Positions 1,137 to 59,881 of a stretch of 64,000 nucleotides of DNA are shown here, piece by piece. Source of the DNA: an uncultured Ignavibacteria bacterium (lineage in GTDB: Bacteria > Zixibacteria > MSB-5A5 > RBG-16-43-9). A program made the translations under genes and the position numbers. Below the pieces are notes generated by a model. That model was not told the origin of the DNA. It saw only the letters and a list, made by a program, of their open reading frames with translations, and did no database searches. The DNA is taken from the NCBI GenBank assembly GCA_964570765.1, contig CAZMZF010000011.1, positions 3,629 through 67,628 of the forward strand. Direction: 5' to 3'. Each line of letters starts with the position of its first letter. The stretch's first letter is position 1.

Positions 1137-1358
1137 TCTTTATTTGGAGTGCATTAACCACGTTAATGCCTTGCTCCCAGCAGTAAAATATGCGGATGAT
1201 AACATCCGCTTCGAGCAAGGGTATCGGGTTTTATGCCCGATGAATTAACGGTTCGACAGGCTCACCGTCCTGAGCAAAGCCGAAGGAAAGATTTATTGCT
1301 GGACGTTGGTCTCCTGACCAACGTCTGCCTGAAAACGGAATTAAGCGATTTATTGAAG

Positions 1359-4319: not shown

Positions 4320-4553
4320 CTACTGATTCCCTATAATAATAAAGCCAAAATGTCGCCTAACTCGTTCATATCCGCAATTATTGCGTATATACCCCTGATT
4401 TTGGGGTTGTAGACGAACCTGTTTCGTTTATTCCGATTCTGGCTGAAGTTCCGATCCTACGGATCCGTTTCTCGGAGAAACGGATTTCACATCGTCTCTA
4501 CGAGCCGTAAGGCTTTTATCGGCCTGAGCCTCAGTCTGCCTAAGGCAGACAAA

Positions 4554-4640
4554 ATTGAATATATAAAGTGAACAGGGGTTGTCAATATAAATCCTAAAAT
4601 CAATGACGGATGACGAATTTCGAATAACGAATAAAAACAA
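4554..4640 (+). repeat. Family F composite repeat, full copy
   Basis: A roughly 87-bp element, 'attgaatatataaagtgaacaggggttgtcaatataaatcc...atgacggatgacgaatttcgaataacgaataaaaa'. It recurs at 1359 (partial) and as the reverse complement at 41959-42045. Confidence 0.8.
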
Positions 4641-4686
4641 AAGACTGCAGCCTTGCCACTCCCGTGCCAACGGAAGGTTGTCTTTT

Positions 4687-4782
4687 GTAGTTGCTCGATT
4701 CATCGAGCAAAAAGCCCAATGAATTGGGCAACTACTTTTAGCCTCGCCTTTGGGCGACCCTGAAAGGGTCGCACTACGAAAA
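4687..4782. repeat. Cluster of GC-rich palindromic elements (GTAG-REP family G plus family C hairpin)
   Basis: The outer stem is 'gtagttgc...gcaactac', enclosing the palindromes 'tcgattcatcga' and 'cccaatgaattggg'. It is followed by 'tagcctcgcctttgggcgaccctgaaagggtcgcactacgaa', the family C hairpin with a 3-nt loop. Confidence 0.75.
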
Positions 4783-4937
4783 TTCGTATTCCAGCCTTGC
4801 CCACTCCTAATTTGGACCACATGAAAGGCGGGATACGACTATTTTTATTGACTTCTCTTTCCTTGAGATTTAATTTAACTTTTTGATGGAATATTTATTA
4901 AGTCATTAGGATTTGATCTTTCAGACTGGAGGTTTCT

Positions 4938-6596
4938 ATGGAATATAGACCGATAAAAGCGCCGCGTGGAACAACTTTATCTTGCAAGGGTTGGCATCAG
5001 GAGGCGGCTTTAAGGATGCTTCAGAATAATTTGGATGAAGAGGTGGCGGAAAACCCTCAAGAGCTTATCATCTATGGGGGGAGTGGCAAAGCGGCGCGAA
5101 ACTGGGAGTGTTACTATGCTATTGTTGAGGCTTTGAAAAATTTAGAGAATGATGAGACCCTTTTGGTCCAGTCCGGCAAGCCGGTTGGGATCTTTAAGAC
5201 CCATTCCTATGCCCCCAGAGTATTAATCTCAAATTCGATGATGGTTCCTGCCTGGGCTAACTGGGAGAAGTTCCGGGAGCTTGAAAGATTGGGCTTGATT
5301 ATGTTCGGGCAGATGACTGCTGGCTCCTGGATTTATATAGGGACCCAGGGAATTTTGCAGGGGACTTATGAGACCTTTGCCTCAGTGGCAAAAAAACATT
5401 TTACCGGAGACCTGAAAGGGAAATTTGTTCTAACTGGTGGAATGGGTGGTATGGGTGGAGCTCAACCTTTAGCAGTAACGATGAATGGCGGTGCAGTTCT
5501 TTGTGTAGAGGTGGATAAGAAAAGAATAGAAAGGAGACTTTCCAAAGGTTATTGCGATAAAATGGTGGAAAGCTTGGATGAGGCTCTTGATATTGTTTTA
5601 AAAGCTAAAAATAAAGGAAAAGCTATTTCCGTGGGGTTAGTGGCTAATTGTGCAGATACTCATCCAGAGATCTTAAAAAGAGGGATAATCCCGGATATCG
5701 TAACTGACCAGACCAGTGCGCATGATGAGTTAAATGGTTATGTCCCTGCAGGGATACCCTATGAAGAAGCTTTAAGATTGAGAAAGGAAAATCCAGAAGA
5801 GTATATCAAAAGGTCGATGGAATCTATTGCTAAACATGTTGAATCGATGTTAGGATTTTTAAAAGCTGGCTCAATAGTATTTGATTACGGAAATAATATA
5901 AGGGGTCAGGCAAAAAAGGCTGGAATAGAAAATGCTTTTGATTTCCCTGGATTTGTTGTCGCATATATCAGACCTCTATTCTGTCTGGGCAAGGGTCCTT
6001 TTAGATGGGCGGCTTTGTCTGGAGATCCTGAGGATATAAAGATTACTGACAAAATAGTATTAAGGGAATTCAAAGAAGATGAGCCTTTGTGCAGATGGAT
6101 AAAATTGGCTTCCAAAAAAGTCCAGTTCCAGGGCTTGCCTGCAAGAATCTGCTGGCTGGGTTATGGTGAAAGAGCTCATTTTGGAGATATTATTAACAGA
6201 TTGGTCAAAAGAGGAAGGATAAAAGCTCCGGTGGTTATCGGCAGAGACCATCTGGATTGCGGGTCTGTAGCTTCACCCTACAGGGAAACCGAAGGGATGA
6301 AAGATGGCTCAGATGCAATTGCAGACTGGCCTATCTTAAACGGACTTTTAAATGCGGTTTCAGGTGCCTCCTGGGTCTCAGTTCACCACGGAGGAGGAGT
6401 AGGAATCGGGAACTCGATTCATGCCGGGATGGTGATAGTGGCAGATGGCTCAAAGGAGATGAAGTTGAGATTAGAAAGAGTTTTAACCAATGATCCGGGC
6501 ACAGGAGTTGCAAGGCACGCGGATGCTGGATATGAAGAAGCAATTAAAGTGGCAAAAGAAAAAGGGATAAAGATACCAATGATGAAAGAAAAGTAA
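4938..6596 (+). CDS. hutU: Urocanate hydratase
   Basis: Full-length urocanase-like translation (552 aa) with a GGAGG RBS 7 nt upstream. Confidence 0.93.
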
Positions 6597-10600: not shown

Positions 10601-10735
10601 AAACGTACAGTCGGGCTTTATGCCCGACGGGTGGCTGGTCGTAGGGCGAACCTTTCAGGTTCGCAATGCGAGGCTCAAAGCCTCGCGCTACGAAATTCAG
10701 AAAGCGGGAGGGGACAAGCCCCTCCCCTACGAAAA
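10601..10735. repeat. Tandem array of four GC-rich hairpins
   Basis: The four hairpins are 'gtcgggctttatgcccgac', 'ggcgaacctttcaggttcgc', 'gcgaggctcaaagcctcgc' and 'ggaggggacaagcccctcc'. The first resembles 'atcgggttttatgcccgat' at 1222. Confidence 0.65.
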
Positions 10736-10807
10736 ATTTTTGTGGGGGCGTATTGTAATTACTTTTTTGTTTTACATTTATACCATTTCCCCCGTAATAA
10801 CAAAAAT

Positions 10808-17248: not shown

Positions 17249-17311
17249 TTTTGTTATGGAGTGCATCCATTTGGATGCATTTTTTTATTAAAGTATTTTT
17301 AAGAGGAATTT

Positions 17312-17423
17312 TGGAGTGCGAGCCTTTCCTGTGATTCGCTTTTCCGACAAATTTGCTCAAAAAAGTAAAGCTGAAGTCTTCACCAGGATCCTGTGGACAA
17401 AACCTTGAGGCTTTACAATCCAG
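17312..17423. repeat. MITE-like element family A (GGAGTG termini)
   Basis: It begins 'tggagtgcgagccttt' and ends 'ggctttacaatccag'. It shares the core 'aaagctgaagtcttcaccaggatcctgtggacaa[ag]accttga' with the copy at 59745-59881. Confidence 0.75.
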
Positions 17424-18669
17424 TGTCTTTTTCTGTAATCTCTTTAGGACCGATGCGGGCAATTACCTCACTCAATCCCAAAATAAAAAACAGTATCATA
17501 TTATCAATCGCGGCCGTATAATAGCACTGAAATTGTGAGGCTAATAGATATGCGAATAGGGTTAAAATCCCGCCTAAGATTAGAGCTTTTTGGTAACCTT
17601 CCTTTTTCTCTTTATATCTACGGAGAAGGTTTTTCAATAAAATCACCCAGAGGAAAATAAAAGCTAAAAGTCCGATTATCCCGGCATTTACCGCTACATT
17701 TAAAAAGTCGTTATGCGCGTGACCGAAGATCTCAGAAGGTATCTTCAAATAACTCTTGTAAAACTCCTGAAAATTACCAAACCCTATCCCGAAGATGGGA
17801 TGATCTTTGAAGATATTAAAAGAGGTTGACCAGATAACTGACCTTATATCTGCCTGTTGTAAAGAACCGGCCTTAGCTGCCATAATCGACCTGCCCAATA
17901 TTCCTGGATCGATTAAATAGATGGCAATAAAGTAGCCAGTTACTGCTAAACCCTCTTTCAATTTGTGCCTGCTTTTCGAGAAGATAAAAAACAGGATAAA
18001 GGCAAAAATTTGTGCATAAAGAGTACTTCTGGTATAGCTGAACAGGTTTCCGGTTACACAAAGGGCTGAAACTGTAAAATAGAATATTTTCAAGGAGGTT
18101 TTTTTCGTATAAGATGCCAGGCAGAAGCTGACTATACCTATTACCATGGCATAGAAAGCATAAGTCAAAGACAGATCAAAGAAACCCGGGGAGCGGAACT
18201 TTCCATAAGGTAGAAGTTGGTCAAGGGGCTTGTGTCTTATCAGGTCTAACCCGGAATAATGTTGCCAGATAGCGTAAAGCGCTACAATCCCCGAGATCAG
18301 AAAAATCAGGTTAACTAATTTCCTTATGAAATTTTCGTCCTTAAGATTATTGATCAATAAAAATGGGATTACAAGCAGCCATTCATCCCTGAGACTAACA
18401 AGGCTTCGGACCGGATTCTGGGAGAAGATGATCGAAAGAAGATAAGCTCCTAAATAGACTAAAACCGGCAGTTCAAAAAAGGAGCTTTCCCAGTTAAAAC
18501 TTTTTTTAGAGATAATTCTCCAGAACCAGCCTAAAAGGGCAAAACAGAGTCCAGTTTGAGTTCCAGCTATAGAAAAGGGAGAAAAAAATACAAAGAGGAG
18601 AAGTCCAAAATTAACTAAAGCTTGAGGTGAGATAAATTTTTCTTTTTTATCAGAAGATATATCGAGCAT
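17413..18669 (-). CDS. O-antigen ligase family membrane protein (Wzy_C domain)
   Basis: A polytopic membrane protein with 'FGHAHNDFLNVAVNAGIIGLLAFIF', the O-antigen ligase/polymerase signature. Confidence 0.75.
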   Translation of the reverse strand: MLDISSDKKEKFISPQALVNFGLLLFVFFSPFSIAGTQTGLCFALLGWFWRIISKKSFNWESSFFELPVLVYLGAYLLSIIFSQNPVRSLVSLRDEWLLVIPFLLINNLKDENFIRKLVNLIFLISGIVALYAIWQHYSGLDLIRHKPLDQLLPYGKFRSPGFFDLSLTYAFYAMVIGIVSFCLASYTKKTSLKIFYFTVSALCVTGNLFSYTRSTLYAQIFAFILFFIFSKSRHKLKEGLAVTGYFIAIYLIDPGILGRSIMAAKAGSLQQADIRSVIWSTSFNIFKDHPIFGIGFGNFQEFYKSYLKIPSEIFGHAHNDFLNVAVNAGIIGLLAFIFLWVILLKNLLRRYKEKKEGYQKALILGGILTLFAYLLASQFQCYYTAAIDNMILFFILGLSEVIARIGPKEITEKDTGL

Positions 18670-20237: not shown

Positions 20238-20324
20238 ATCCTTTTATCTCCGCAATTCAGTTGAAGAGAGTGGTCGGGTCCAGAATGGATCCAATTGGAC
20301 AAGGGTGCCCAACCTACGTTCTAT

Positions 20325-20445
20325 TCCCTCTCCCCTCTACGAGCCGTAAAGCTCTTATCGGCTTGTGGGAGAGGGTTAGGGATATAGGGGGAAAAAATAA
20401 TTTCACCCTCCCCTTCCCCCCTCCATCAAGGGAGGGGACTCCTAA
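20325..20445. repeat. Family D palindromic element carrying a nested family E module
   Basis: The sequence reads 'ccctctcccct[ctacgagccgtaaagctcttatcggct]tgtgggagagggttaggga ... caccctcccct..ccatcaagggaggggac'. The bracketed module is absent from the 22637-22715 copy but occurs alone at 4495-4530. Confidence 0.75.
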
Positions 20446-21109: not shown

Positions 21110-21135
21110 AGTTTAGCTCTTTTTATCCAATTCTG

Positions 21136-21782
21136 TCAGACAGGAATGTCTGACTTACTTATAATGCATATTTTTCCACATAATATCTCTTCAAAATCAC
21201 CCCATTGATTTTCGTAAGATTTATCTTGAATATATTCAGGATTTTCCCGGTCATATTGCCATTGTAAAAGATTATACAAGATATATTGCCTGATAAGATT
21301 TAATTCGTTTTCATTTCTAATAACGTGTTCATAATAATTTCGTTGCCAAACAGAGATTCCAGGTGAGTTGTGAATAATATTAATTTGTTTAGTAACTGCA
21401 GATTTGAAAGAGCGTATAATAGTAGGCAATGAACCAATAACAGGTTTTCCGAACCGTTCAACTGGAGGGGCACGGCGCGCCGTGCCCCTACAATCTCGGT
21501 AATCATCACAATTCCGTGAAAATGATTGGGCATTACCATGAAAACATCTATCTTAACATCTTTTCTTAATCTTGCTGTTTTTCTCCATTCCTCTTCAACC
21601 ACATGACCATATTTATTTAACTTCATTACACCGTTAACTACCTTGCCAAAAATATATTCACTATTACGTGTACATATGGTTACAAAATACGCACCTGCCT
21701 GTGAATAATCATAATCCTTTAACCTGATTGAACGGCGGTGATATTTTTGGGGATTATATTTACTATCAGAAATTTTATCCAT
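21136..21782 (-). pseudogene. REP-associated tyrosine transposase (RAYT, IS200-like HuH Y1 transposase), frameshifted
   Basis: The N-terminal ORF carries 'YSQAGAYFVTICT' and the HuH motif 'MPNHFHGIV', then 'VGARRAVPLQ'. A second ORF in another frame carries 'SLPTIIRSFKSAVTKQIN...SVWQRNYYEHVIRNENELNLIRQYI', which includes the catalytic Tyr region. The frame break lies near 21450-21468. The gene is flanked by hairpins at 21133-21155 and 21825-21846. Confidence 0.7.
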
Positions 21783-21845
21783 AGAATTTCCTGATGTAGG
21801 GGCTTGATTTATCAAACCCTATTTGAGGCACGATGAATCGTGCCT

Positions 21846-22586
21846 CTACCTATGTATTGCCCTGGCAAAATCTTTTAAAATCTTATCATTCCCCTTTTCT
21901 TCTAAGGCATTCCCAATCACCACGAAGTTTGCCCCGGCTTTTACCTTAGCTTTAGCGGTTTCCGGGTCTCTTATTCCTCCGCCGATTATCAAAGGAACGG
22001 TGATAAATTTCTTCACCTCTTTTATCAAAGGATCAGGTACAGAACTCTCTGCCCCGGAGCCTGCATCCATAAAGATAAATTTCATCCCTAAATATTCTGC
22101 AGCAAGGGCATGAGCACAGGCAAGATCTGGCTTATTCGAAGGCAAGGGAAGGGTATCAGACATAAACTGAACCGAGGTCATCTTTCCGGATTCGATTAAC
22201 ATATATCCGGTCGGGATCGGTTCTAAACCAAATTCTTTTATCACCGGTGCGGCTTTCACCTGTTCGCCGATCAAAAGGTTTGGGTTTCTGCCGCTGATCA
22301 AGGAAAGAAACAAAACCGCATCTGCATATTTAGAGACCTGGTTGGCATTTCCTGGAAAGATTATTACCGGGAGTTTGACTTTCTCTTTTATCCTTTTAAT
22401 TGCCTCATCAAAATGGGTGGATAAAAGCAAGCTTGAGCCGACCAAGATTCCGTCTGCTCCCCCTTTCTCTGCCCGATAAGCTAATTCCGCAATCTCTTTG
22501 GGGCTTAACCTGTCCGGGTCCAATAGGACTAAGAAGCCTCCTTTTTTATCTTTGATAACCTTTAATAATCTCTGATAAACTTTCAA
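21846..22586 (-). CDS. Geranylgeranylglyceryl-phosphate synthase family protein (PcrB/GGGPS)
   Basis: 'GGADGILVGSS', 'FMDAGSGA' and 'PLIIGGGIRDPETAKA' are the (beta/alpha)8 GGGPS/PcrB signatures. Confidence 0.75.
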   Translation of the reverse strand: MKVYQRLLKVIKDKKGGFLVLLDPDRLSPKEIAELAYRAEKGGADGILVGSSLLLSTHFDEAIKRIKEKVKLPVIIFPGNANQVSKYADAVLFLSLISGRNPNLLIGEQVKAAPVIKEFGLEPIPTGYMLIESGKMTSVQFMSDTLPLPSNKPDLACAHALAAEYLGMKFIFMDAGSGAESSVPDPLIKEVKKFITVPLIIGGGIRDPETAKAKVKAGANFVVIGNALEEKGNDKILKDFARAIHR

Positions 22587-22636
22587 GTTCCCCTCGTTTT
22601 TATTTTGGAGTGCATCGTCCGTGTCGCTGTGTGACA

Positions 22637-22715
22637 GTTCCCTCTCCCCTTGTGGGAGAGGGTTAGGGAGAGGGGTTCACCCTCCCCTAACCCCTCCCAT
22701 CAAGGGAGGGGAAGT
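22637..22715. repeat. Family D palindromic element (un-interrupted copy)
   Basis: 'ccctctccccttgtgggagagggttagggagaggggttcaccctcccctaacccctcccatcaagggaggggaagt'. Confidence 0.75.
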
Positions 22716-22747
22716 ATGCATTGACACGGTTAATACACTCCAAATAT

Positions 22748-25387: not shown

Positions 25388-25442
25388 TGGAGTACAAACC
25401 TTAAGGTTTATGAAAAAGTAAAGCTAAAGCTTTACACTCCAG
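25388..25442. repeat. MITE-like element family A (short copy)
   Basis: 'tggagtacaaaccttaaggtttatgaaaaagtaaagctaaagctttacactccag'. The terminal inverted repeats are 'tggagtRYaaa'/'tttRYactcca'. Confidence 0.8.
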
Positions 25443-26088
25443 TATTTTCTTCTGAAACCTCCACATCTTTTATTTTCAAAACCTGTTTAACAATCTCATA
25501 CGAAAATCCTCTTCTTAATAAGAAACTCATCATTCTTCTTTTAGCCATATTTTTATCCAGGTTCTCATATCTTTTCTTTCTTTTCTCTAAAAGATTTTTA
25601 GCTAAATTTAACTCCTCTTCTTCGTCTTCAAAATATTCCTGCAGGACTTTTTCAATCGTCTCATCTTTTATCCCTTTTTTCCACAATTCCTGCTTTAAAA
25701 GAATCTTTCCCTGAGGCTTATTGGAGATTTTATCTCTGACAAAAGTAGAGGCGAAGTTAGAGTCATCTATAAGATTTATCCTTTTTAAATCTTTTATCAC
25801 CTCATCTATTAAGTCATTTGCAAATTCTTTTTTCTTTAACTTATCCCTGACCTCCTTTTCGCTTCTCATCCGGTAAGATAAGAATTTCAGTGCTGCATCT
25901 TTCGATTCTTTTTTTACCTCAGACTCAAGTATCTGGTCAATTTTCTTCTGGTCAAGCTCCTCCCCAATTTTTAACCCATATTTATATAAAACCTCTTCAT
26001 CCAGACCAAAGGCAAACTCTCCATCTAAAAAAATTGACCTTCTTTTCGGGTTTTTCTTCTGTGATTCTATTTTGGTTATGCGAGGCAT
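25432..26088 (-). CDS. recX: Recombination regulator RecX
   Basis: RecX-like three-helix repeats in a K/E-rich protein. It sits in the conserved recA-recX-alaS arrangement. Confidence 0.8.
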   Translation of the reverse strand: MPRITKIESQKKNPKRRSIFLDGEFAFGLDEEVLYKYGLKIGEELDQKKIDQILESEVKKESKDAALKFLSYRMRSEKEVRDKLKKKEFANDLIDEVIKDLKRINLIDDSNFASTFVRDKISNKPQGKILLKQELWKKGIKDETIEKVLQEYFEDEEEELNLAKNLLEKRKKRYENLDKNMAKRRMMSFLLRRGFSYEIVKQVLKIKDVEVSEENTGV

Positions 26089-31120: not shown

Positions 31121-31169
31121 AATCGTATCGTGGAGTTCGTAGTGCGAGGCCTCAAGGTCTTGAGACTTT

Positions 31170-31250
31170 TAGCCTCGCCTAAGCGACCCTGTCCTACGGT
31201 GGCTACGCCAGACGTAGTCTCCGTTATTAGGAAAAGGGTCGCGCAACGAA
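31170..31250. repeat. Family C hairpin with GTAG-REP (family B) nested in its loop
   Basis: 'tagcctcgcctaagcgaccct[gtcctacggtggctacgccagacgtagtctccgttattaggaaaa]gggtcgcgcaacgaa'. The 4737-4782 copy has only 'gaa' in the loop. Confidence 0.8.
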
Positions 31251-32859: not shown

Positions 32860-33089
32860 TTTTTTTTCTCCACATACTGCTGAATTAACCTTTTAAGTCT
32901 GTTACCATAGATTAAATCGAATTTCTCCATATCATCTGGTATTAGAGATTCTGCTTTTAACCTGACCAGAGCCGCTTCCTTTTTAGCCTCCCCTAAAGTC
33001 AACTCTCCACTTTTGATTTTTTCACAGGCTTGATCCACGATCTTTTTAAGTTTTTTTAACTTCTCCTCAGAATTAAGATATTCTTTCAT
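32847..33089 (-). CDS. Hypothetical small protein
   Basis: An 80-aa ORF translationally coupled (ATGA overlaps) between dprA and the yigZ-like gene. Confidence 0.35.
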   Translation of the reverse strand: MKEYLNSEEKLKKLKKIVDQACEKIKSGELTLGEAKKEAALVRLKAESLIPDDMEKFDLIYGNRLKRLIQQYVEKKNWGE

Positions 33090-33955
33090 AGATATTTCGA
33101 AACTAAATCTAAATCCCCGGACCCATTAATCGGGATAGCACCAATCCTGACCAGTTCATCTAAGTTTTTGCTCTCCTCTCTCATAACCGCAAAAAGAGGC
33201 TTCCCCTGGTCAATAGCTTTTTTAGCCGTATCCATTGTGCCTGAGGTATTATCTTCAGTTTCCACCACTATCACAGCTTGAGAAAGACCTACAACTATTC
33301 GGTTTCTTGCCATAAGCTGACCCACATTCACCCTGGCATTCAGAGGATATTCAGTTATAAGAGCACCATTCTTGCTAATCTCAACTGAGAGGTTAAGATT
33401 TTCTTTAGGATAGATATTATTCAAACCAAAACCTAAGACCGCATAGGTTTTTCCTTTTTTAGCGATTGCTCCCATATGTGCGCCAGTATCAATTCCCCGG
33501 GCTAAACCACTTACTACTACACCATTTTTTTCTGCCAACTTTTTCCCGATCTCAGTTGCATCTTTAATGCCTTCATAGGTAGCATTATGTGTGCCAACTA
33601 CTGCTACGAATACAGTATCAGATAACGGGAATTCACCTTTAAAATAAAGCAAAGGGGGCGGATCATCAATCTCTCTTAAGCTTTGTGGGAATTCCTCGTC
33701 TAATATGGTCTTGATCCCGATACCCTGTTCCTCCAAGAAAGATATATGCTCTTCGATTTCAGCAAATTTCTCCTGAGAATCAAATATCTCCTTAGCCTTC
33801 TCTGGACTCATTCTGGGAAGTTTAGAAATCTGTTCTAAGGTAGCTTTGAAGATATTCTCCGGAGAGCCAAAAGCAAAAAGGAGCTGTTGAAATCTTTTAG
33901 GTCCAATTTTCGCCACTTTTCTTAAAGCTATGATGTATTTTCGATAGTCCAACAC
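33086..33955 (-). CDS. dprA: DNA-processing protein DprA
   Basis: 'VVSGLARGIDTGAHMGAI' is the Rossmann-fold DprA core. Confidence 0.75.
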   Translation of the reverse strand: MLDYRKYIIALRKVAKIGPKRFQQLLFAFGSPENIFKATLEQISKLPRMSPEKAKEIFDSQEKFAEIEEHISFLEEQGIGIKTILDEEFPQSLREIDDPPPLLYFKGEFPLSDTVFVAVVGTHNATYEGIKDATEIGKKLAEKNGVVVSGLARGIDTGAHMGAIAKKGKTYAVLGFGLNNIYPKENLNLSVEISKNGALITEYPLNARVNVGQLMARNRIVVGLSQAVIVVETEDNTSGTMDTAKKAIDQGKPLFAVMREESKNLDELVRIGAIPINGSGDLDLVSKYL

Positions 33956-33998: not shown

Positions 33999-34076
33999 AA
34001 GTAAATTTTGGAGTATAAACCTTTAAGTTTATCAGAATGAATCTTCTGTTAATGGATTAAAGTAAAGCTAAAGCTT
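33999..34076. repeat. MITE-like element family A
   Basis: 'tggagtataaaccttt...aaagtaaagctaaagctttacactccag'. Its termini match those of 25388-25442. Confidence 0.8.
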
Positions 34077-34086
34077 TACACTCCAG

Positions 34087-35196
34087 TCATTCTTCCCAGG
34101 AGTTATAATTTTTCGGAGATCCCTCAGGAAATTGTATAAATCCTCTTCCCTCGAAAAAAATAAGCTCCATTCCGAAGATGGATGAATCGAAATTTAATCT
34201 ATTCAATATCTCCTGAGCCATCTTCCCTTCAGCCACCTTAGGAGATCGGAGGAAGGTTACCAGCTCAATCGGAATTATCTCCGCTTGAAGAAGATTTTTA
34301 CCCCGCAGGGTAATTTTTAACATAATGCTCTGGTTATTCTTTAAGTCTTTCTGGTCAAATACAAAATTTCCCAGGCTATAGGCGATTAGTTTTCCTTTAT
34401 ATAATTCTATCCCCTGAAACGTATGAGGATGATGTCCCACCACAATATCTGCACCGCAGTCAATTACCATACGGGCTAAGCTTTTCTGATATTCTGAGGG
34501 GAAATCTTCATATTCAATCCCCCAGTGAAAAGAGACTACAACCAAATTCACATCCTTTTTCGCTTTTTCTATATCTTCTATTATCCAGGAAGATTTAATT
34601 TTTGCAACTCCAGGACTATCTTTTCCTGCATAGACAGCACCAGGAGATAAATCGTAACCCAGGAAAGCAATCTTAAGATCACCTAAATCAAAGATAGCAG
34701 GTTTTCTGGCTTCTCTTATATTTTCCCCTGCACCGATAATCTGGAAATTATTTTGTTCTAAAAGTTTGAGTGTCTCCTCAAAAGCCTTTCTGCCATAATC
34801 ATAAGAATGGTTATTAGCCAAGTTGAGCACATCAAATCCAGCATATTTTAATCCTTTTATCGACTCAGGGTTCCCCCGGAAAGCATAGATCTGGTCTCCT
34901 TTCATCCCTCTTTTGGAAATAGGAGATTCCAGATTTCCGAAAGTAATCTCTGCAGAATTGGTTATATTAGCGATATTTTTAAAAGGATAAAGGTATCCTT
35001 CTTTTTTCATATACAAATCTACACCCCGGGAAAGCATAATATCACCAGTGAAAATTAAACTGTGTTCTCTGGGAAAAAAGATATTTTCCTGCCCGGAAGA
35101 ATTTTCTATCTGGGGGTTGAAAGGTGATAGAAAAAAGAGTAAGAGGAAAAAAGAGAGAAGAAAGAACTTTTTAAACGGATGTTTTGTAGAAGCCAT
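34087..35196 (-). CDS. CapA-family (PGA-synthesis-type) metallophosphatase
   Basis: It has a signal peptide and calcineurin-like motifs ('GNLE', 'NNHSYD', 'VVGHHPH'). Confidence 0.75.
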   Translation of the reverse strand: MASTKHPFKKFFLLSFFLLLFFLSPFNPQIENSSGQENIFFPREHSLIFTGDIMLSRGVDLYMKKEGYLYPFKNIANITNSAEITFGNLESPISKRGMKGDQIYAFRGNPESIKGLKYAGFDVLNLANNHSYDYGRKAFEETLKLLEQNNFQIIGAGENIREARKPAIFDLGDLKIAFLGYDLSPGAVYAGKDSPGVAKIKSSWIIEDIEKAKKDVNLVVVSFHWGIEYEDFPSEYQKSLARMVIDCGADIVVGHHPHTFQGIELYKGKLIAYSLGNFVFDQKDLKNNQSIMLKITLRGKNLLQAEIIPIELVTFLRSPKVAEGKMAQEILNRLNFDSSIFGMELIFFEGRGFIQFPEGSPKNYNSWEE

Positions 35197-35215
35197 TCTC
35201 GGGAGAAATATTATG

Positions 35216-35396
35216 TAGGGACAGGGCTTGTCCCTGTCCTAATGCTAATAAGGACAGCCACACGCTTCGACGATTCGACAAGCTCATCGTCCCGAGCAAA
35301 GTCGAGGGACAAGCTCCCTTCGATCTTACTCAGGGACAGTGAGAGGAATCGAACTGTCACCGTCCTGAGCAGGGTCGAAGGAAGGGCTGTCCCTAC
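35216..35396. repeat. BIME-like unit: GTAG-REP, internal family H repeats, inverted REP
   Basis: 'gtagggacagggcttgtccctgtcc' at the 5' end and 'gggctgtccctac' at the 3' end lie in inverted orientation. Between them are 'catcgtcccgagcaaagtcgaggga' and 'caccgtcctgagcagggtcgaagga'. The latter is also found at 1261-1290. Confidence 0.7.
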
Positions 35397-38339: not shown

Positions 38340-40799
38340 TCAAAGAAAATTTAATTGCACAGAGCCCTTAGGGTTAGCTTTGGGGATTCTATAAAGGTTT
38401 TCTATATGTGAAGGCTCTATTCCTTTTTTTCTTTTATTGTCTTCAAAAATTGTTTCAAGAGCATGATATAATATAAATTTCCAATTATACTTAGTTATTT
38501 GTTCTTGTAAGATAGGTTCCTGTAATCGTCTATTCAATAACCTCTCTCTTTCATTTGGAATAATGATTACTCTTTTCACATCTAGGTTTGGTATACTTGT
38601 GCCTCTTATTATTGCTTCTGTTATACCCGTTGTATTCTCGACTTCAAATTCCCAATACACTTTACCCTGCTTATACCATATGCAATCAATATTTTTTACT
38701 CTATCCAATCTTTCCGGTAAGATATTAACTAATTTAAAATCTTTTTCATCACATAAATCTGCTAATTTTTCTCCATCGTAAGTTTCGTTTTGCTCTTTTA
38801 AACCGACCCAGATTTTAAACCCCATTTTTTTACCAAGAACTGCCAGGTAATATATAAACTTACCATGCTCCTTCGCACGTCGGACTACACTTTGCCGTAA
38901 TCTCCACTTTCCATCTGAGGTCTTCTCAGCATATTCACCTAAAATATCCTTCACATTCTGAGTATCTGGCGTTAGAGCATTAGGAAAATTAATAAGTATC
39001 TCTTGTAAAGCATCATCGAAAGTCACTTTAATTTGTCGATTCAAAACATTTATTACAGCCTTTTCTACTCTTTCGCGTAAAGGAATTTTTTCTAAATGCG
39101 GAACACTCGAAGGATCTTTAAACCACCATTCATACCCTTTGATTTTACTTCTTTCATCTTTGACCGGGATTAATACAAACTCCTTATCAAGATGTTCTTT
39201 AAGGATCTGGTCAAATTTTCTTTGCCCAGCAAGCAGAACTCCATGTTGGTTTAGAACAGGATATATACCATTTAAAATATATGTATAAGCTGTAGGCTCA
39301 CCTCTCTCTGCAATTATTTTTGTAGTAGTATTTACTACTACTTTCTCATACAGCTCGACGCTGGCATTATTATTCTCTTGGATCTCCATCCGTTTCTCAG
39401 GTTTTCTGAATCTCAAATAATAATCACCTACAGCGCTTCCGTAAGGCCTTAATAAGGCAAGATTGGAGGCTCTTGCAGGCGGCTGGTATATAATTTTCTC
39501 TAAGTTAAATCCGGCTAAGACAATGGCTTGAATAATGCTATTAAAAATCTTAATGTCAGTACTATGGAATGTAACTGTGAGATATTTCGCGGGTTTTAAG
39601 ACTTCATAGATTCTAGAGAAGGCCGCATAAAGCATTTTATGATAATATTCAAAATCCTTTTTTTGCCATTTGTTTATTGTTATCTCGTCTCCAAACTCTA
39701 ATTCAAAATCTTCATCCTTAGGACCTTTTAACCAAGAAGTCCATAATACGCTTAATTCAAAATATTGAATAGCTCCTCCATAAGGGGGATCGGTAAAACA
39801 ATAATCTATACTTCCCTTTGGAATGTATTCATCAAGTTCCAAGGCAGATTTTGTAAGTAAAAAGATATTTCTGTCCTTCTTAAGTTCTGCAAAGTTTTTT
39901 GCTTCCTTATATACTCGTATAACTTCTTGAGAATCTGATTTCCCCCTTAGAATACCTTGTCTTCCCTCAATTGAGCTTTCAAATAAATTCCAAACATTTG
40001 ATTCCATATATAAAGGAGGCACCCAAAAACTATTCATAGCCCAGAATGAACTAAATTGTCTACTCGGTCTAACAGGTGTTAATTTGCTGGCTAAATGAAG
40101 TATAGAGCTAAAGGAAAAAAGAAAGATATCTTTCATTTTTCTTGATTTAATCTTACTTATTTGATTAAATAAAATAGAAAGTGCTAAAAGATTTCTTTTA
40201 GTAAACAAATCTGCTATGGATTCGCCGGCTTTTCTCGCCTGATTAAATGTTATACCTTTTGGAAACTGGTATTTTGGATACCAAAATTTTATTCGTTGAC
40301 CTTCAACTTCTGAATATTTCTTGAAATCTTCTTTTCTCGGTTTTTTCGAACCTTTTAAACCACATTTTGGGCACTCAAACATTATTCTGCTGATTTTATT
40401 CTTATTCCAATGACAACAGATTATTGTTACTGCATTCTTACACTTTGGACATGAGGTAGCATATAATACATCAATCTGGTGTTTTATATTTTTTCTAATA
40501 TGCTCGTATGTAGCTTCTATCTCTCGGAGATCAGTTGGCTGAGATGTCATCTTAGTTATGAAAATAGCCATTGGATCTAAATCTATAGCTACAGCTTTTC
40601 TATTTAATCTCAGAGACTCAATAGCAGTTACACCTGAACCAACAAAAGGGTCTAAAACAATGTCTCCTTTTTTGGAATATGTTTTGATATATTCCGCAAC
40701 CACATTATGTGGTTTTCTCGCCCACCACTTATGCATCAAGTACATTGGAGTATGGGCTTTAGAAACTAAAGCATGATTTATTTGTTGTACTTCAGACAT
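38340..40799 (-). CDS. N6-adenine/N4-cytosine DNA methyltransferase with a large C-terminal extension
   Basis: 'YLMHKWWARKPHNV' plus 'LDPFVGSGVT' (AdoMet motif I) lie near the N-terminus, and 'CFTDPPYG' (motif IV) is about 290 aa further on. Roughly 400 aa of unassigned sequence follow. No cognate restriction endonuclease gene is adjacent. Confidence 0.8.
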   Translation of the reverse strand: MSEVQQINHALVSKAHTPMYLMHKWWARKPHNVVAEYIKTYSKKGDIVLDPFVGSGVTAIESLRLNRKAVAIDLDPMAIFITKMTSQPTDLREIEATYEHIRKNIKHQIDVLYATSCPKCKNAVTIICCHWNKNKISRIMFECPKCGLKGSKKPRKEDFKKYSEVEGQRIKFWYPKYQFPKGITFNQARKAGESIADLFTKRNLLALSILFNQISKIKSRKMKDIFLFSFSSILHLASKLTPVRPSRQFSSFWAMNSFWVPPLYMESNVWNLFESSIEGRQGILRGKSDSQEVIRVYKEAKNFAELKKDRNIFLLTKSALELDEYIPKGSIDYCFTDPPYGGAIQYFELSVLWTSWLKGPKDEDFELEFGDEITINKWQKKDFEYYHKMLYAAFSRIYEVLKPAKYLTVTFHSTDIKIFNSIIQAIVLAGFNLEKIIYQPPARASNLALLRPYGSAVGDYYLRFRKPEKRMEIQENNNASVELYEKVVVNTTTKIIAERGEPTAYTYILNGIYPVLNQHGVLLAGQRKFDQILKEHLDKEFVLIPVKDERSKIKGYEWWFKDPSSVPHLEKIPLRERVEKAVINVLNRQIKVTFDDALQEILINFPNALTPDTQNVKDILGEYAEKTSDGKWRLRQSVVRRAKEHGKFIYYLAVLGKKMGFKIWVGLKEQNETYDGEKLADLCDEKDFKLVNILPERLDRVKNIDCIWYKQGKVYWEFEVENTTGITEAIIRGTSIPNLDVKRVIIIPNERERLLNRRLQEPILQEQITKYNWKFILYHALETIFEDNKRKKGIEPSHIENLYRIPKANPKGSVQLNFL

Positions 40800-40828: not shown

Positions 40829-41517
40829 CTACATCAAATTCCTTTCCCTCAAACTCACATAACTTTCATTTCCGATGATTATATGATCCAAGACATCTAT
40901 CTCCATTAATTTCCCGACCTCTACTATTTTGCGAGTAACTTTCAGGTCATTTTCAGAAGGGTCCGGGTCGCCAGAGGGATGATTATGTGCTAAAATCAAA
41001 GCAGCAGCCCCATATTCGATTGCCGGGCGAAAAACCTCTCTGGGTTGAACTATATTAAAAGTCAAACTGCCGATGGAGATAACCTCATCGTGGATTAAGC
41101 GATTTCTGATATTTAAGTATAATCCCCGGAAATGTTCCTTCTGCAGTTTTCTCATCTCCTCTAAATATTTATACACATCCTCGGTGTCCTTATAGTTGGA
41201 ATTCTACCTTTATCCTCAAGGAAAAATCTCCTGCCCAGTTCAAACACAGCCACTATCTGGCAGGCTTTTACCTGAGGAATCCCTAAGGTATTCATCAGCC
41301 TGCCTACATCTTTTTCCTGGGCAATCGCTTTTGAGCCATAGTCTTTGATTATCCTCTCAGATAGCTCGATTACATTTAAGCCCTTATACCCGGTGTTCAA
41401 AATAATAGAAAGAAGCTCACTATTCCTCAGAACATCCGGACCATATTTTATTAACTTTTCCCTGGGCTTCTGATCCTCGGGTAGCTCTTTTATTCTGATC
41501 TGATAATTATCTTCCAT
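40829..41517 (-). pseudogene. radC: radC (JAB/MPN-domain protein), split by a frameshift
   Basis: ORF 41161-41517 encodes the RadC N-terminal HhH-type region. ORF 40829-41176 encodes the JAMM motif 'HNHPSGDPDPS'. The two overlap in different frames near 41161-41176. Confidence 0.7.
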
Positions 41518-41842
41518 GACTATATCTTCTAATGCAAAGCTTCAACAAAGTTAATAAATAATTTGGGAAAAGGAAAGAAAAAAATCATTCACAGCAGATA
41601 AAACTGATTAAGCTGATTTTTCGAGCGGATTATCTGCTTAATTAAACTAATCAGCTGTGAGGAATTTTTAGTTATAGGGAGGGGCTTGTTCCCTCCCGAA
41701 ATTTGGGAGTTCCCAAGGAACTCCACTACAAAACTTGTTGTCACATTGTAGTTACCCAATTCATTGGGTAATTTATTTTCGGTAGGTCGGACATTCCTAT
41801 CTGACCCTGGCGAACAGACAAGAATGTCTGTTCTACCAGTTT

Positions 41843-41935
41843 TTGCTCGATGAATTGAGCAACTACAAAACATCCATCCGTTGCCATCCTAGAAACGGAG
41901 ACTACGTCTGGCGTAGCCACCGTAGTCTAGGACAG
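41843..41935. repeat. Reverse-orientation copies of GTAG-REP families G and B
   Basis: 'ttgctcgatgaattgagcaactac' is followed by 'cggagactacgtctggcgtagccaccgtag', the reverse complement of 'ctacggtggctacgccagacgtagtctccg'. Confidence 0.75.
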
Positions 41936-41958
41936 GAGTTGTAACGCTACAGTCATTT

Positions 41959-42045
41959 TATTTTTTATTCGTTATTCAAAATTCGTCATCGGTCATTTAG
42001 TTTAAGATTTATATTGACAATCTTTTACTACCTCATATATTCAAT
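41959..42045 (-). repeat. Family F composite repeat, reverse-complement copy
   Basis: The reverse complement reads 'attgaatatatgaggtagtaaaagattgtcaatataaatcttaaa...atgaccgatgacgaattttgaataacgaataaaaaataa', matching 4554-4640. Confidence 0.8.
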
Positions 42046-42293
42046 CTTCAATAAATCGCCTAACCCCGCTTAGGCGGGGGCGGAGGAACCATAAAATTCT
42101 AGGGCGAATTTTTCCTAAATGGGAGATAGGGTTAACTCTTGACCCGAGCCTTTAAGCTAACTCCGCAGGCGTAAAGAGAGGAGTGAAGATCTGAATAGTA
42201 TAGACCACTGGGTTTTCATTGGTCTTTTTTCTTTGATTATATTTTTTCATTGTAGTTGTCTAATTTATGGGGCTATTTAAACTGCTGGAATTG

Positions 42294-49156: not shown

Positions 49157-49298
49157 AAAATTACCTTTTTCTTATCCTAAATTTGTAGTGGAAGGCTTTA
49201 GCCTTCCATTTATTTTATGGAGGTCTAATCCGCCTTCGGCGGACCGCTACATTTAAAGCGACCCTGATCCCGCCGATGGCGGGGCAATCTGGGTTGCG

Positions 49299-50084: not shown

Positions 50085-50126
50085 CCAGAATTAACCGTAG
50101 AGACGCATTGCAATGCGTCTCTACCC

Positions 50127-56424: not shown

Positions 56425-56530
56425 TTAGCCTCGCTTAAGCGACCCTGTCCTACGGTGGCTACGAGCCAGCCCGCCCGTAGGGCGCCAGACGTAGTCTCCG
56501 TTATTAGGAAAAGGGTCGCACTACGAATCC
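56425..56530. repeat. Family C hairpin carrying GTAG-REP (family B) plus a further nested palindrome
   Basis: 'tagcctcgcttaagcgaccct[gtcctacggtggctacga{gccagcccgcccgtagggcgc}cagacgtagtctccgttattaggaaaa]gggtcgcactacgaa'. Confidence 0.8.
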
Positions 56531-56583: not shown

Positions 56584-56647
56584 TCGGAGTGCAAGAGCTT
56601 GCTCTTGCATTCTATCTAATATGCATCAGCAAGCTGATGCACTCCAT
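56584..56647. repeat. Hairpin element with GGAGTGCA/TGCACTCC termini
   Basis: 'ggagtgcaagagcttgctcttgcattctatctaatatgcatcagcaagctgatgcactcc'. The GGAGTGCA start is also seen at 1147, 17260 and 22603. Confidence 0.6.
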
Positions 56648-58279: not shown

Positions 58280-59710
58280 ATGGAAAAGGAATATAAGATG
58301 TTGATAGGGGACAAATGGGTCTCCGGGGAGAAATTTTTTGAGGTTAAAAACAAATACAATCAAGAGGTGATCGGAAAAGTTCCGGAAACAAATAAGGAAA
58401 ACTTTGAAAAAGCGGTTTTATCTTCGCTCGCAGGATTTAAAACCATATCAACTCTTCCAGCTCACCAGAGAGCAAAGATTTTACAGAATACCTCAGAGTT
58501 AATTGAGAAGAATAAGGAAGAGTTCACCCGGATAATCTGTCTGGAGGCTGGTAAAGCCTGGAAACATTCTTTAGTTGAGGTGGAAAGGTCTGTTCAGACC
58601 TTTAAGTTTGCCTCTGAAGAGGCAAAGGATATTTGTGGTCATACCGTTCCTTTAGATGCCTCAGTTGGGGGAGAGAAAAGGATTGGTTTTTTTATGAGGT
58701 TTCCAGTAGGGGTGGTCGGAGCTATCTCCCCGTTCAATTTTCCCTTGAACTTAGTGGCGCATAAAGTTGCACCAGCCATTGCAGCTGGCTGTTCAGTAAT
58801 TTTAAAACCAGCCTCATTAACCCCTTTGACCTCGATAAAATTAGGGGAGATAATGCTGGAGGCAGGGCTATGCCCAGGTGGTTTGAACATAATCTTTGGC
58901 TCAGGAGGAACAGTAGGTGATTGGCTGGTTACCGATGAAAGGGTTTCTATGATAACTTTTACTGGAAGCCCGCCAGTGGGAAGAAGGATTAAAGAAAAAT
59001 CCGGGCTTAAAAAAGTTACCTTGGAGTTAGGCTCCAATTCTGCAGTGATAGTTGACCAGGATGCGGATTTAAACTTGGCTGTGGAAAGGTCTGTTATGGG
59101 AAGCTTTGCTTATGCCGGACAGATCTGCATATCGGTTCAGAGGATTTTTCTGCATAAGAAAATCTATGAAAAATTTAAAAAAGATTTCTTGGATAAAACC
59201 TCAAAGCTTAAATTGGGTGATCCCTTAGATAAGACAATAGATGTCGGACCGATGATCACAGAAGAAGATGCTAAGAGGACTGAATCCTGGGTAAATGAGG
59301 CTGTAAAAGAGGGAGCGAAAATTTTAATCGGAGGGAAAAGGGATGGGGCTTTCTTTTATCCAACTGTTTTAGAGAATGTCAAGCCGGAGATGAAAGTAAT
59401 GGTTTTGGAGGTCTTTGCCCCGGTGGTCTGCTTTTGCCAGTTTGAAGATTTTTCAGAGGCAGTCAAGATGGTGGACAATTCGATCTACGGGCTTCAGGCA
59501 GGGGTTTTTACAGATAATATCGAAAATGCATTTCAGGCTATCAAAGGGATAAAAGTTGGTGGAGTGATAATCAATGATGTGCCAACCTATAGAGCAGATA
59601 ATATGCCTTATGGCGGGGTTAAGGAAAGCGGGATCGGAAGAGAAGGGGTAAAATTTGCGATCGAGGAGATGACCGATATTAAAATGGTCTGCTTTAACTT
59701 GAGAAAATAA
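58280..59710 (+). CDS. NAD(P)-dependent aldehyde dehydrogenase family protein
   Basis: The ALDH catalytic motifs 'LELGSNSA' and 'GQICISVQR' (Cys nucleophile) are present. 476 aa. Confidence 0.9.
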   Translation: MEKEYKMLIGDKWVSGEKFFEVKNKYNQEVIGKVPETNKENFEKAVLSSLAGFKTISTLPAHQRAKILQNTSELIEKNKEEFTRIICLEAGKAWKHSLVEVERSVQTFKFASEEAKDICGHTVPLDASVGGEKRIGFFMRFPVGVVGAISPFNFPLNLVAHKVAPAIAAGCSVILKPASLTPLTSIKLGEIMLEAGLCPGGLNIIFGSGGTVGDWLVTDERVSMITFTGSPPVGRRIKEKSGLKKVTLELGSNSAVIVDQDADLNLAVERSVMGSFAYAGQICISVQRIFLHKKIYEKFKKDFLDKTSKLKLGDPLDKTIDVGPMITEEDAKRTESWVNEAVKEGAKILIGGKRDGAFFYPTVLENVKPEMKVMVLEVFAPVVCFCQFEDFSEAVKMVDNSIYGLQAGVFTDNIENAFQAIKGIKVGGVIINDVPTYRADNMPYGGVKESGIGREGVKFAIEEMTDIKMVCFNLRK

Positions 59711-59744: not shown

Positions 59745-59881
59745 TAGATAATCTGGAGTGTAAACCTTTCCTACGGTGGCTACGCCAGACGTAGTCTCCG
59801 CTTATAGAACAGGTTTACCAGATAAAGCTAAAGTCTTCACCAGGATCCTGTGGACAAGACCTTGATGGCTTTATATTCCAG
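59745..59881. repeat. MITE-like family A element with a GTAG-REP (family B) inserted
   Basis: 'tggagtgtaaacctttc[ctacggtggctacgccagacgtagtctccg]cttatagaac...aaagctaaagtcttcaccaggatcctgtggacaagaccttgatggctttatattccag'. Compare 17312-17423, which lacks the insert. Confidence 0.8.

Follow-up and report, generated by a model that had tools for sequence, protein, structure and literature searches.

GGAGT-tagged repeat doublets and their link to a clade of RAYT proteins in Zixibacteria and other uncultivated lineages

Repeat elements in the window and the genes beside them

The stretch of DNA analysed here (64 kb; hereafter the window) holds four related short elements: copy A (17312–17423), copy B (25388–25442), copy C (34009–34086) and copy D (59754–59881). 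A preliminary description had presented them as a four-copy MITE-like family, and the family is real, since all four were found and align over their ends. The positions first given for copies A and B are exact; copies C and D exist as well, but the former had been placed 10 nt off (at 33999–34076) and the latter had been started at 59745, taking in 9 nt of flank which precede the conserved core and prolong the inverted repeat in copy D alone. The terminal 12-mer GGAGTRYRAAVC (one mismatch allowed) has 10 matches in the window against 3.6 expected, a number reached by none of 100 shuffles, and the ends of the four copies account for eight of the ten. The internal block said to be common to copies A and D is likewise real (a 33-mer with two matches against 0 expected; 43 nt at 95% identity) and is confined to these two copies in the window.

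Each element is composed of two inverted half-sites of 23–24 nt, in each of which a conserved tag, (Y)TGGAGT, precedes a separate hairpin of 7 bp. The tags face outward, the hairpin loop has the form C-TTYA-G, and the spacer between the half-sites varies from 3 to ~40 nt. The consensus reads (Y)TGGAGT, GTAAACC-TTYA-GGTTTAC, variable spacer, GTAAAGC-TRAA-GCTTTAC, ACTCCA(R). Reverse-complementing the left half gives the right half, save for one compensated C/G stem pair (AAACC/GGTTT in one half, AAAGC/GCTTT in the other), which makes the elements heterodimers; we therefore take the half-site (tag plus hairpin) as the unit and the element as an inverted doublet of it. The longer copies have extensions or nested repeats at their hairpin tips.

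Copy B (plus strand) is the minimal intact doublet, matching structure model R1 at 72.8 bits (E = 4e-16). Its left half-site (TGGAGT+ACAAACC-TTAA-GGTTTAT, 25388–25411) is separated by the spacer GAAAAA from the right half-site (GTAAAGC-TAAA-GCTTTAC+ACTCCA, 25418–25441), and its fold has z = -4.3 on the plus and -4.7 on the minus strand. Copy C (plus strand; structure model 63.9 bits; fold z = -3.2 / -5.6) is also intact, with half-sites at 34009–34032 and 34062–34085 and a spacer of 29 nt. Copy D (plus strand; structure model 23.1 bits; fold z = -4.2) has both hairpins extended: hairpin 1 contains a nested repeat (59771–59807), bearing out the earlier observation of an insertion within one copy, and hairpin 2 carries the extension in common with copy A (59823–59865), whilst the right tag has degenerated to ATTCCA. 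Copy A (plus strand) is a decayed doublet with a structure model score of 14.8 bits (E = 0.26) and a fold z of -0.5, from which we conclude that the stable fold has been lost; its hairpin 1 is extended and mismatched (GCGAGCC...), its hairpin 2 has the same extension as in copy D (17366–17408), and its right tag has degenerated to AATCCA. The repeat nested in the hairpin 1 loop of copy D belongs to a separate family, CTACGGTGGCTACG...CCAGACGTAGTCTCCG, with copies at 31169–31250, 41887–41925 (inverted), 56425–56527 and 59771–59807, and the same nesting occurs at a Zixibacteria locus (L109).

The other hairpins that had been put forward as related (1146, 17258, 22607 and 56586/56638) do carry GGAGTGCA, which occurs seven times in the window against 0.79 expected, and are relatives of the four copies. 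The window thus holds, in all, four core doublets, two sibling doublets and two solo half-sites. Element E (56586–56645, no strand assigned; structure model 23.8 bits) belongs to a sibling family and is a doublet built in the same way: GGAGT+GCAAGAGC-TT-GCTCTTGC, a 14-nt spacer, and GCATCAGC-AA-GCTGATGC+ACTCC. Element F (22607–22741, no strand assigned) is a GGAGT...ACTCC doublet located directly 3′ of alaS and containing GC-rich nested repeats (22640–22712); GC-rich repeats of the form CCCTCCC...GGGAGGGG are found in this AT-rich genome at 20300–20445 and at 22640–22712, one set lying inside element F. One solo half-site, GGAGT+GCATTAAC-CAC-GTTAATGC (1146–1169, plus strand), shows 79% complementarity with element F at the latter's right end. 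The other, GGAGT+GCATCCA-TT-TGGATGC followed by a T-run (17258–17286, plus strand), lies 10 nt after tRNA-Leu(GAG).

Repeats with a GTAG tag are present in the same DNA. The structure model built from the GGAGT doublets also matches GTAG doublets of the same design at 10638–10694 and 49182–49253 (compare TGTAGTGGAAGGCTTTAGCCTTCC with TGGAGTGTAAACCTTTAGGTTTAC), and on this basis the GGAG tag is a one-base variant of GTAG. Further GTAG REP doublets or single units lie at 4683–4713 / 41840–41870 and at 35206–35234 / 10705–10739 / 41677–41698, several units having the same arrangement of tag, stem and CTTTAG loop as the GGAGT elements; the genome therefore carries several REP families. Of another kind is a repeat of ~70–90 nt with three copies, 82% similar, at 1333–1400, 4551–4642 and 41957–42071 (inverted). 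The last abuts a c-di-AMP riboswitch (42047–42185), and the repeat may represent a shared promoter or leader.

All copies had been described as lying immediately 3′ of genes, namely alaS, dprA, the tRNA-Leu/secG region and the aldehyde dehydrogenase gene. This is correct for copy D, which is located between the aldehyde dehydrogenase gene (58280–59710) and a DinG-like helicase gene (59908–62679), but the assignments to alaS and dprA are wrong because both genes are on the minus strand. Copy B is 3′ of recX and upstream of alaS. Copy C lies 3′ of a PGA_cap gene (34087–35196, minus), starting 1 nt past its stop codon, and upstream of dprA (33086–33955, minus). Copy A has tRNA-Leu(GAG) on one side and, on the other, the 3′ end of a Wzy_C-family gene (17413–18669, minus), the stop codon of which is contained in its right half-site; the right half-site of copy B similarly contains the recX stop codon (25432–25434, minus) and the last three codons (T-G-V). 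The tag supplies final codons and stop at window positions 25432–25443 and 17413–17424, as well as at ~5250–5262 of locus L058 and ~5915–5927 of locus L052. The sequence ..CT GGA GTG TAA yields (S/T)-G-V-stop in recX (in two genomes) and in a gene of 434 aa, and the Wzy_C gene ends in T-G-L-stop. For annotation, this means that the elements provide the end of some genes, such as the T-G-V-stop of recX, and that they create spurious start codons.

A role as terminators or transcript stabilisers had also been suggested. Only copy B (in the minus sense) and the solo half-site at 17258–17286 resemble intrinsic terminators, for which a T-run after a G+C-rich hairpin, on the transcribed strand, was required; copies A, C and D and element E fail on this definition, with no T-run in A, C or D, and termination was rejected as a property of the family. 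A search of the whole window against Rfam returned no match at the elements at the gathering threshold, and none at E ≤ 1 for copy B.

Half-site structure, distribution and mobility

The elements fold into two local hairpins closed by conserved ends, and not into a single long hairpin. In a set of 35 elements drawn from many genomes the local hairpins are 98.3% paired and contain 35 double-change cells, a number that none of 500 shuffles reaches. End-to-end pairing in the same set gives one double-change cell, which is equalled in 443 of 500 shuffles, and was rejected as a selected structure on these counts. The GGAGT/ACTCC ends show no covariation; they are conserved yet tolerate A.C (five A.C cells among the 35 elements), and are therefore a sequence tag, not a stem. 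Of 116 flanks, 112 have T directly 5′ of the tag (position -1) and 94 have Y at position -2. The description of the ends as terminal inverted repeats is correct insofar as they are inverted, although each end is in fact a half-site with an internal hairpin of its own.

A scan with the exact 22-mer of the right half against one genome per species revealed more than 114 loci among the matches listed, mostly in Zixibacteria genomes assembled from metagenomes, with at least about 9 to 24 such loci per genome. Many copies therefore exist outside the window, and the family is of the dispersed, mobile type that had been proposed, with at least dozens of copies per genome in many Zixibacteria metagenome genomes. 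The loci hold 63 inverted pairs, most commonly ~50–52 nt long, together with solo half-sites. All of the 50 elements that were classified are extragenic, none lying inside an ORF, and their mix of intergenic contexts resembles the background. Both orientations occur; the strand on which hairpin 1 comes first is the gene strand in 28 of 39 tandem contexts (28 vs 11), a bias which could reflect a candidate replication-strand preference. Tandem arrays are found at 5792–6500 of locus L016, where units of 56/80 nt lie next to a RAYT gene, and three right-half sites in a row occupy 4733–4828 of locus L069; such arrays are mistakable for CRISPR-like or satellite arrays. The elements are also located at contig-breaking repeats in metagenome assemblies.

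The combination of GGAGT with a GTAAA[C/G]C hairpin extends to contigs labelled Aminicenantia, Nitrospira, Terriglobales and Gammaproteobacteria, and to a Falkowbacteria (CPR) contig (L017) whose taxonomic label is sound, the named close relatives of its MurA being Patescibacteria only. Several of the metagenome taxon labels are unreliable; the Lon protease of one genome labelled ‘Ignavibacteria’ is 90.6% identical to that of the window.

The genome closest to the window is that of OY970208.1 (Zixibacteria), with syntenic stretches that are 83–91% identical at the nucleotide level. At one position a GGAGT doublet of 107 nt and a GTAG doublet of 58 nt are present in that genome where the window (50085–50110) has neither, the flanks being 88% identical; alignment of this filled/empty junction with affine gaps gave no duplication at either boundary. 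The comparison shows gain or loss of an element between relatives, in agreement with the mobile character first ascribed to the family. The target-site duplications expected of MITEs were found neither at the filled site nor in 58 non-redundant doublets (k = 2–8, four offsets), where the counts equal the permutation expectation.

An element lies at the recX–alaS junction in the window and, degenerate, at L058; the junction is empty at L115, where the recX stop directly abuts the alaS start (TAAATG); these genomes are too diverged for exact insertion boundaries to be resolved. Doublets of the GGAGT family with differing interiors lie right after the alaS stop codon in three genomes (element F in the window, and L058 and L115 in two other Zixibacteria genomes), which fits long persistence at a site. 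Since spacers differ among copies, there is no support for recent copying of whole doublets. Synteny with OY970208.1 ends at the site of copy C. Elsewhere, the stretch at 146–1215 (L106, 6900–8000) is inverted and relocated in OY970208.1, and in place of the 819-aa gene at 38340–40799 that genome has an 80-nt spacer with a GGAGT-family element. Two overlapping minus-strand ORFs in the window (40829–41176 and 41161–41517) correspond to one ORF of 235 aa in the closest genome (L076, 96–98% identical), an apparent frameshift in the window.

The flanking RAYT proteins and competing explanations

Clustering of all ORFs of the loci placed a Y1 (IS200-like) transposase, present at nine loci, as the second most recurrent ORF family near the elements. 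At three of the nine (L059, L016 and L017) the gene is a member of one subfamily and elements flank it directly: at L059 there are complete doublets 2 nt past its stop codon and 10 nt ahead of its start codon, at L016 an upstream array of at least eight doublets, and at L017 elements on both sides, with inverted half-sites 604 nt apart. A further window-type doublet lies 11 nt upstream of the RAYT start codon at L121. Zixibacteria loci L118–L120 have doublets that share this design, the GGAGT tag and the CTTYAG loop, and whose stems are entirely different; the RAYT flanks at L122 and L123 have GGAGT/GGAAT-tagged hairpins with other stems. GGAGT- or GGAAT-tagged hairpins mark the WOR-3 and Kerfeldbacteria loci. 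The elements are thus physically linked to one RAYT clade, the genes of which are flanked, in other genomes, by the same elements or by variants of the same design. The flanks of the remaining Y1 genes in the loci have hairpins of another kind, tagged GTAG.

The subfamily has 83 detectable homologues, including proteins from Zixibacteria, Patescibacteria and WOR-3, and each protein cluster is present on only 1–6 contigs. Applying a strict rule, 24 of 80 metagenome homologues have a GGA(G/A)T followed immediately by a hairpin within 250 nt of the gene, 16 of them on both sides, and GGAGT is by far the top 5-mer before the hairpins that flank these homologues. The left half-site of element E is identical to repeats flanking RAYT homologues at L167, L179 and L181.

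The partner proteins score 90–109 bits with the NCBIfam model NF047646, ‘REP-associated tyrosine transposase’ (cut-off 80), 19–27 bits with the IS200 model NF033573 (below its cut-off of 55), and above the cut-off with Pfam Y1_Tnp. Their best match among solved structures is 4ER8, E. coli TnpA-REP, with the HUH (HYH) motif, Tyr, Asn and His aligned. Judged by these sequence matches, the flanking proteins are RAYTs. Within the subfamily, RAYTs 65–69% identical to the L059 protein carry other stems, whereas those 54–56% identical to it carry window-type stems; as RAYT similarity does not track stem sequence, specificity is not readable from these data.

No cognate RAYT gene is encoded within the 64-kb window, where the sole RAYT-like gene is frameshifted. 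This Y1 gene (21136–21815, minus) is split over two frames, 21300–21815 and 21136–21429, which meet near a GC-rich palindrome (~21440–21480), and is probably a pseudogene. It was rejected as the partner on account of the frameshift, the lack of a Pfam match at E ≤ 0.001 and the GTAG-type REP hairpins that flank it (21135–21154 and ~21822–21850).

With a RAYT-type HUH tyrosine transposase as partner, the elements are, in our judgement, most likely REP doublets (REPINs) and not MITEs. The MITE reading takes them to be deletion derivatives of a DDE-type IS, whose transposase would bind terminal GGAGTGYAAA repeats and make target duplications. It accounts for the inverted ends, for the dispersal of the family and for a site occupied in one genome and unoccupied in a near relation, but not for the lack of 2–8 nt duplications beyond chance in the 58 elements or at the filled site. 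An IS with these ends is found neither in the window, as the preliminary description had already stated, nor in the 893 kb of loci, where the only genes enclosed by distant half-sites are the RAYT gene of L017 and an ordinary 434-aa gene (L052). The selected structure is, moreover, the hairpin within each end and not the complementarity of the ends, and the enzyme encoded recurrently nearby is of the Y1 HUH type and not of the DDE type. An IS-derived MITE with transposase-bound terminal repeats, as initially proposed, was thus not borne out, and we regard it as very improbable. The ends, or miniature derivatives (palindrome-associated transposable elements), of an autonomous IS200/IS605 element, whose Y1 transposase gene moves with its hairpin ends, would involve the same enzyme superfamily, the same recognition of hairpins and the same absence of duplications, and the L017 gene does lie between inverted half-sites. 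However, the proteins are recognised by the RAYT model and score below the cut-off of the IS200 model, there are far more elements than genes, and each protein cluster occurs on just a few contigs; the genes are also flanked by complete doublets or arrays and not by distinct left and right ends, so that such an origin appears improbable.

Equally improbable, in our view, is that the elements are host RNA elements (3′-end stabilisers, terminators or structured ncRNAs) kept for their function without a dedicated transposase. All copies are extragenic and usually lie just 3′ of a gene, hairpin 1 comes first on the gene strand in most tandem contexts, the solo half-site at 17258 and, in the minus sense, copy B are terminator-like, and doublets recur after the alaS stop in three genomes, all as would be expected of such a function. 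Against it, both orientations occur, copies A, C and D have no T-run, the spacer is unconstrained and Rfam gave no match at the gathering threshold or, for copy B, at E ≤ 1. Tandem arrays and the direct flanking of RAYT genes would not be explained by a local RNA function, nor would the fact that unrelated loci, and a CPR genome, contain the identical sequence. An RNA role is possible alongside the REP identity, and the hairpins after genes may have a putative secondary role as 3′-end RNA structures.

If E. coli TnpA-REP and IS200/IS605 are taken as models, a RAYT encoded in single copy elsewhere in this genome would bind the folded hairpin and tag on single-stranded DNA, and would cut and rejoin next to the tag through a 5′-phosphotyrosine intermediate. 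Doublets would in this way be copied or excised in trans without target duplication. Two bases of GTAG, A3 and G4, are retained in GGAG; in E. coli TnpA-REP it is these two that are placed so as to pair with the CT at which cleavage occurs (PMC3479197). A conserved YT dinucleotide lies directly 5′ of the tag.

Comparison with known repeat systems

The elements form a REP/REPIN family with a GGAG(T) tag that is tied to a RAYT clade of Zixibacteria, CPR and neighbouring uncultivated lineages. The repeats, formerly of ‘orphan MITE’ status, are thereby assigned to a known system whose partner enzyme can be tested, and REP/RAYT biology is extended from Proteobacteria to Zixibacteria and CPR-type lineages.

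Classical bacterial MITEs (Correia/NEMIS, RUP, ERIC and similar) are likewise small, dispersed, inverted-repeat elements located next to genes, and some of them provide stop codons or 3′ hairpins. They differ in being mobilised by DDE transposases and in carrying target duplications, neither of which was found here. Closer in enzymology are IS200/IS605 elements and their palindrome-associated miniature derivatives, whose hairpins, preceded on the 5′ side by a guide-like sequence, are acted on in single-stranded form by a Y1 HUH enzyme without target duplication; they are set apart from the present family by the failure of its proteins on the IS200 model, by a gene that is not multi-copy in the available data, and by ends that are symmetric doublets.

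The most unusual aspect of the family is the occurrence of the same REP sequence in different phyla, together with RAYTs ~55% identical to each other. REPIN–RAYT systems are considered to be inherited almost strictly vertically, a view that movement between phyla, if true, would go against. One REP type that is nearly unchanged in Zixibacteria and Falkowbacteria would imply either that REPIN–RAYT systems cross phyla or that the REP sequence has stayed the same across very deep divergence. GGAG would in addition form a third tag class having its own cleavage rule; this proposal is tentative, and we hold it to be on the doubtful side.

The closest likeness is to the GTAG REP/REPIN systems, exemplified by E. 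coli REP/BIME with TnpA-REP and by the REPINs of Pseudomonas (Bertels & Rainey 2011, PMC3116915; Messing 2012, PMC3479197). In both, a short hairpin has a conserved unpaired tag at its 5′ foot, the units form inverted tail-to-tail heterodimers with differing stems, and the repeats are extragenic, of high copy number and free of target duplications; in both, too, repeats flank a RAYT gene with HUH and Tyr motifs, here in other genomes. Surveyed REPs comprise tail-to-tail and head-to-head dimers, including heterodimers of two differing stems, and the surveyed RAYT genes are flanked by their own repeats (Di Nocera 2013, PMC3733652). The tags in that survey are GTAG, with degenerate forms (GYAG, GYRG, GTRG, GTMG and GTGG), and CGTC; GGAG(T), one base from GTAG, is absent from these degenerate forms and is not CGTC either. 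The hosts differ as well, being Zixibacteria, CPR/Patescibacteria, WOR-3 and similar lineages here and Proteobacteria there, and the present doublets are very compact, their commonest length being ~50–52 nt, with one stem sequence accompanying RAYTs of ~55% mutual identity. The difference of one base between GGAG and GTAG is a natural tag variant, and provides material for testing how RAYTs read their guide sequence.
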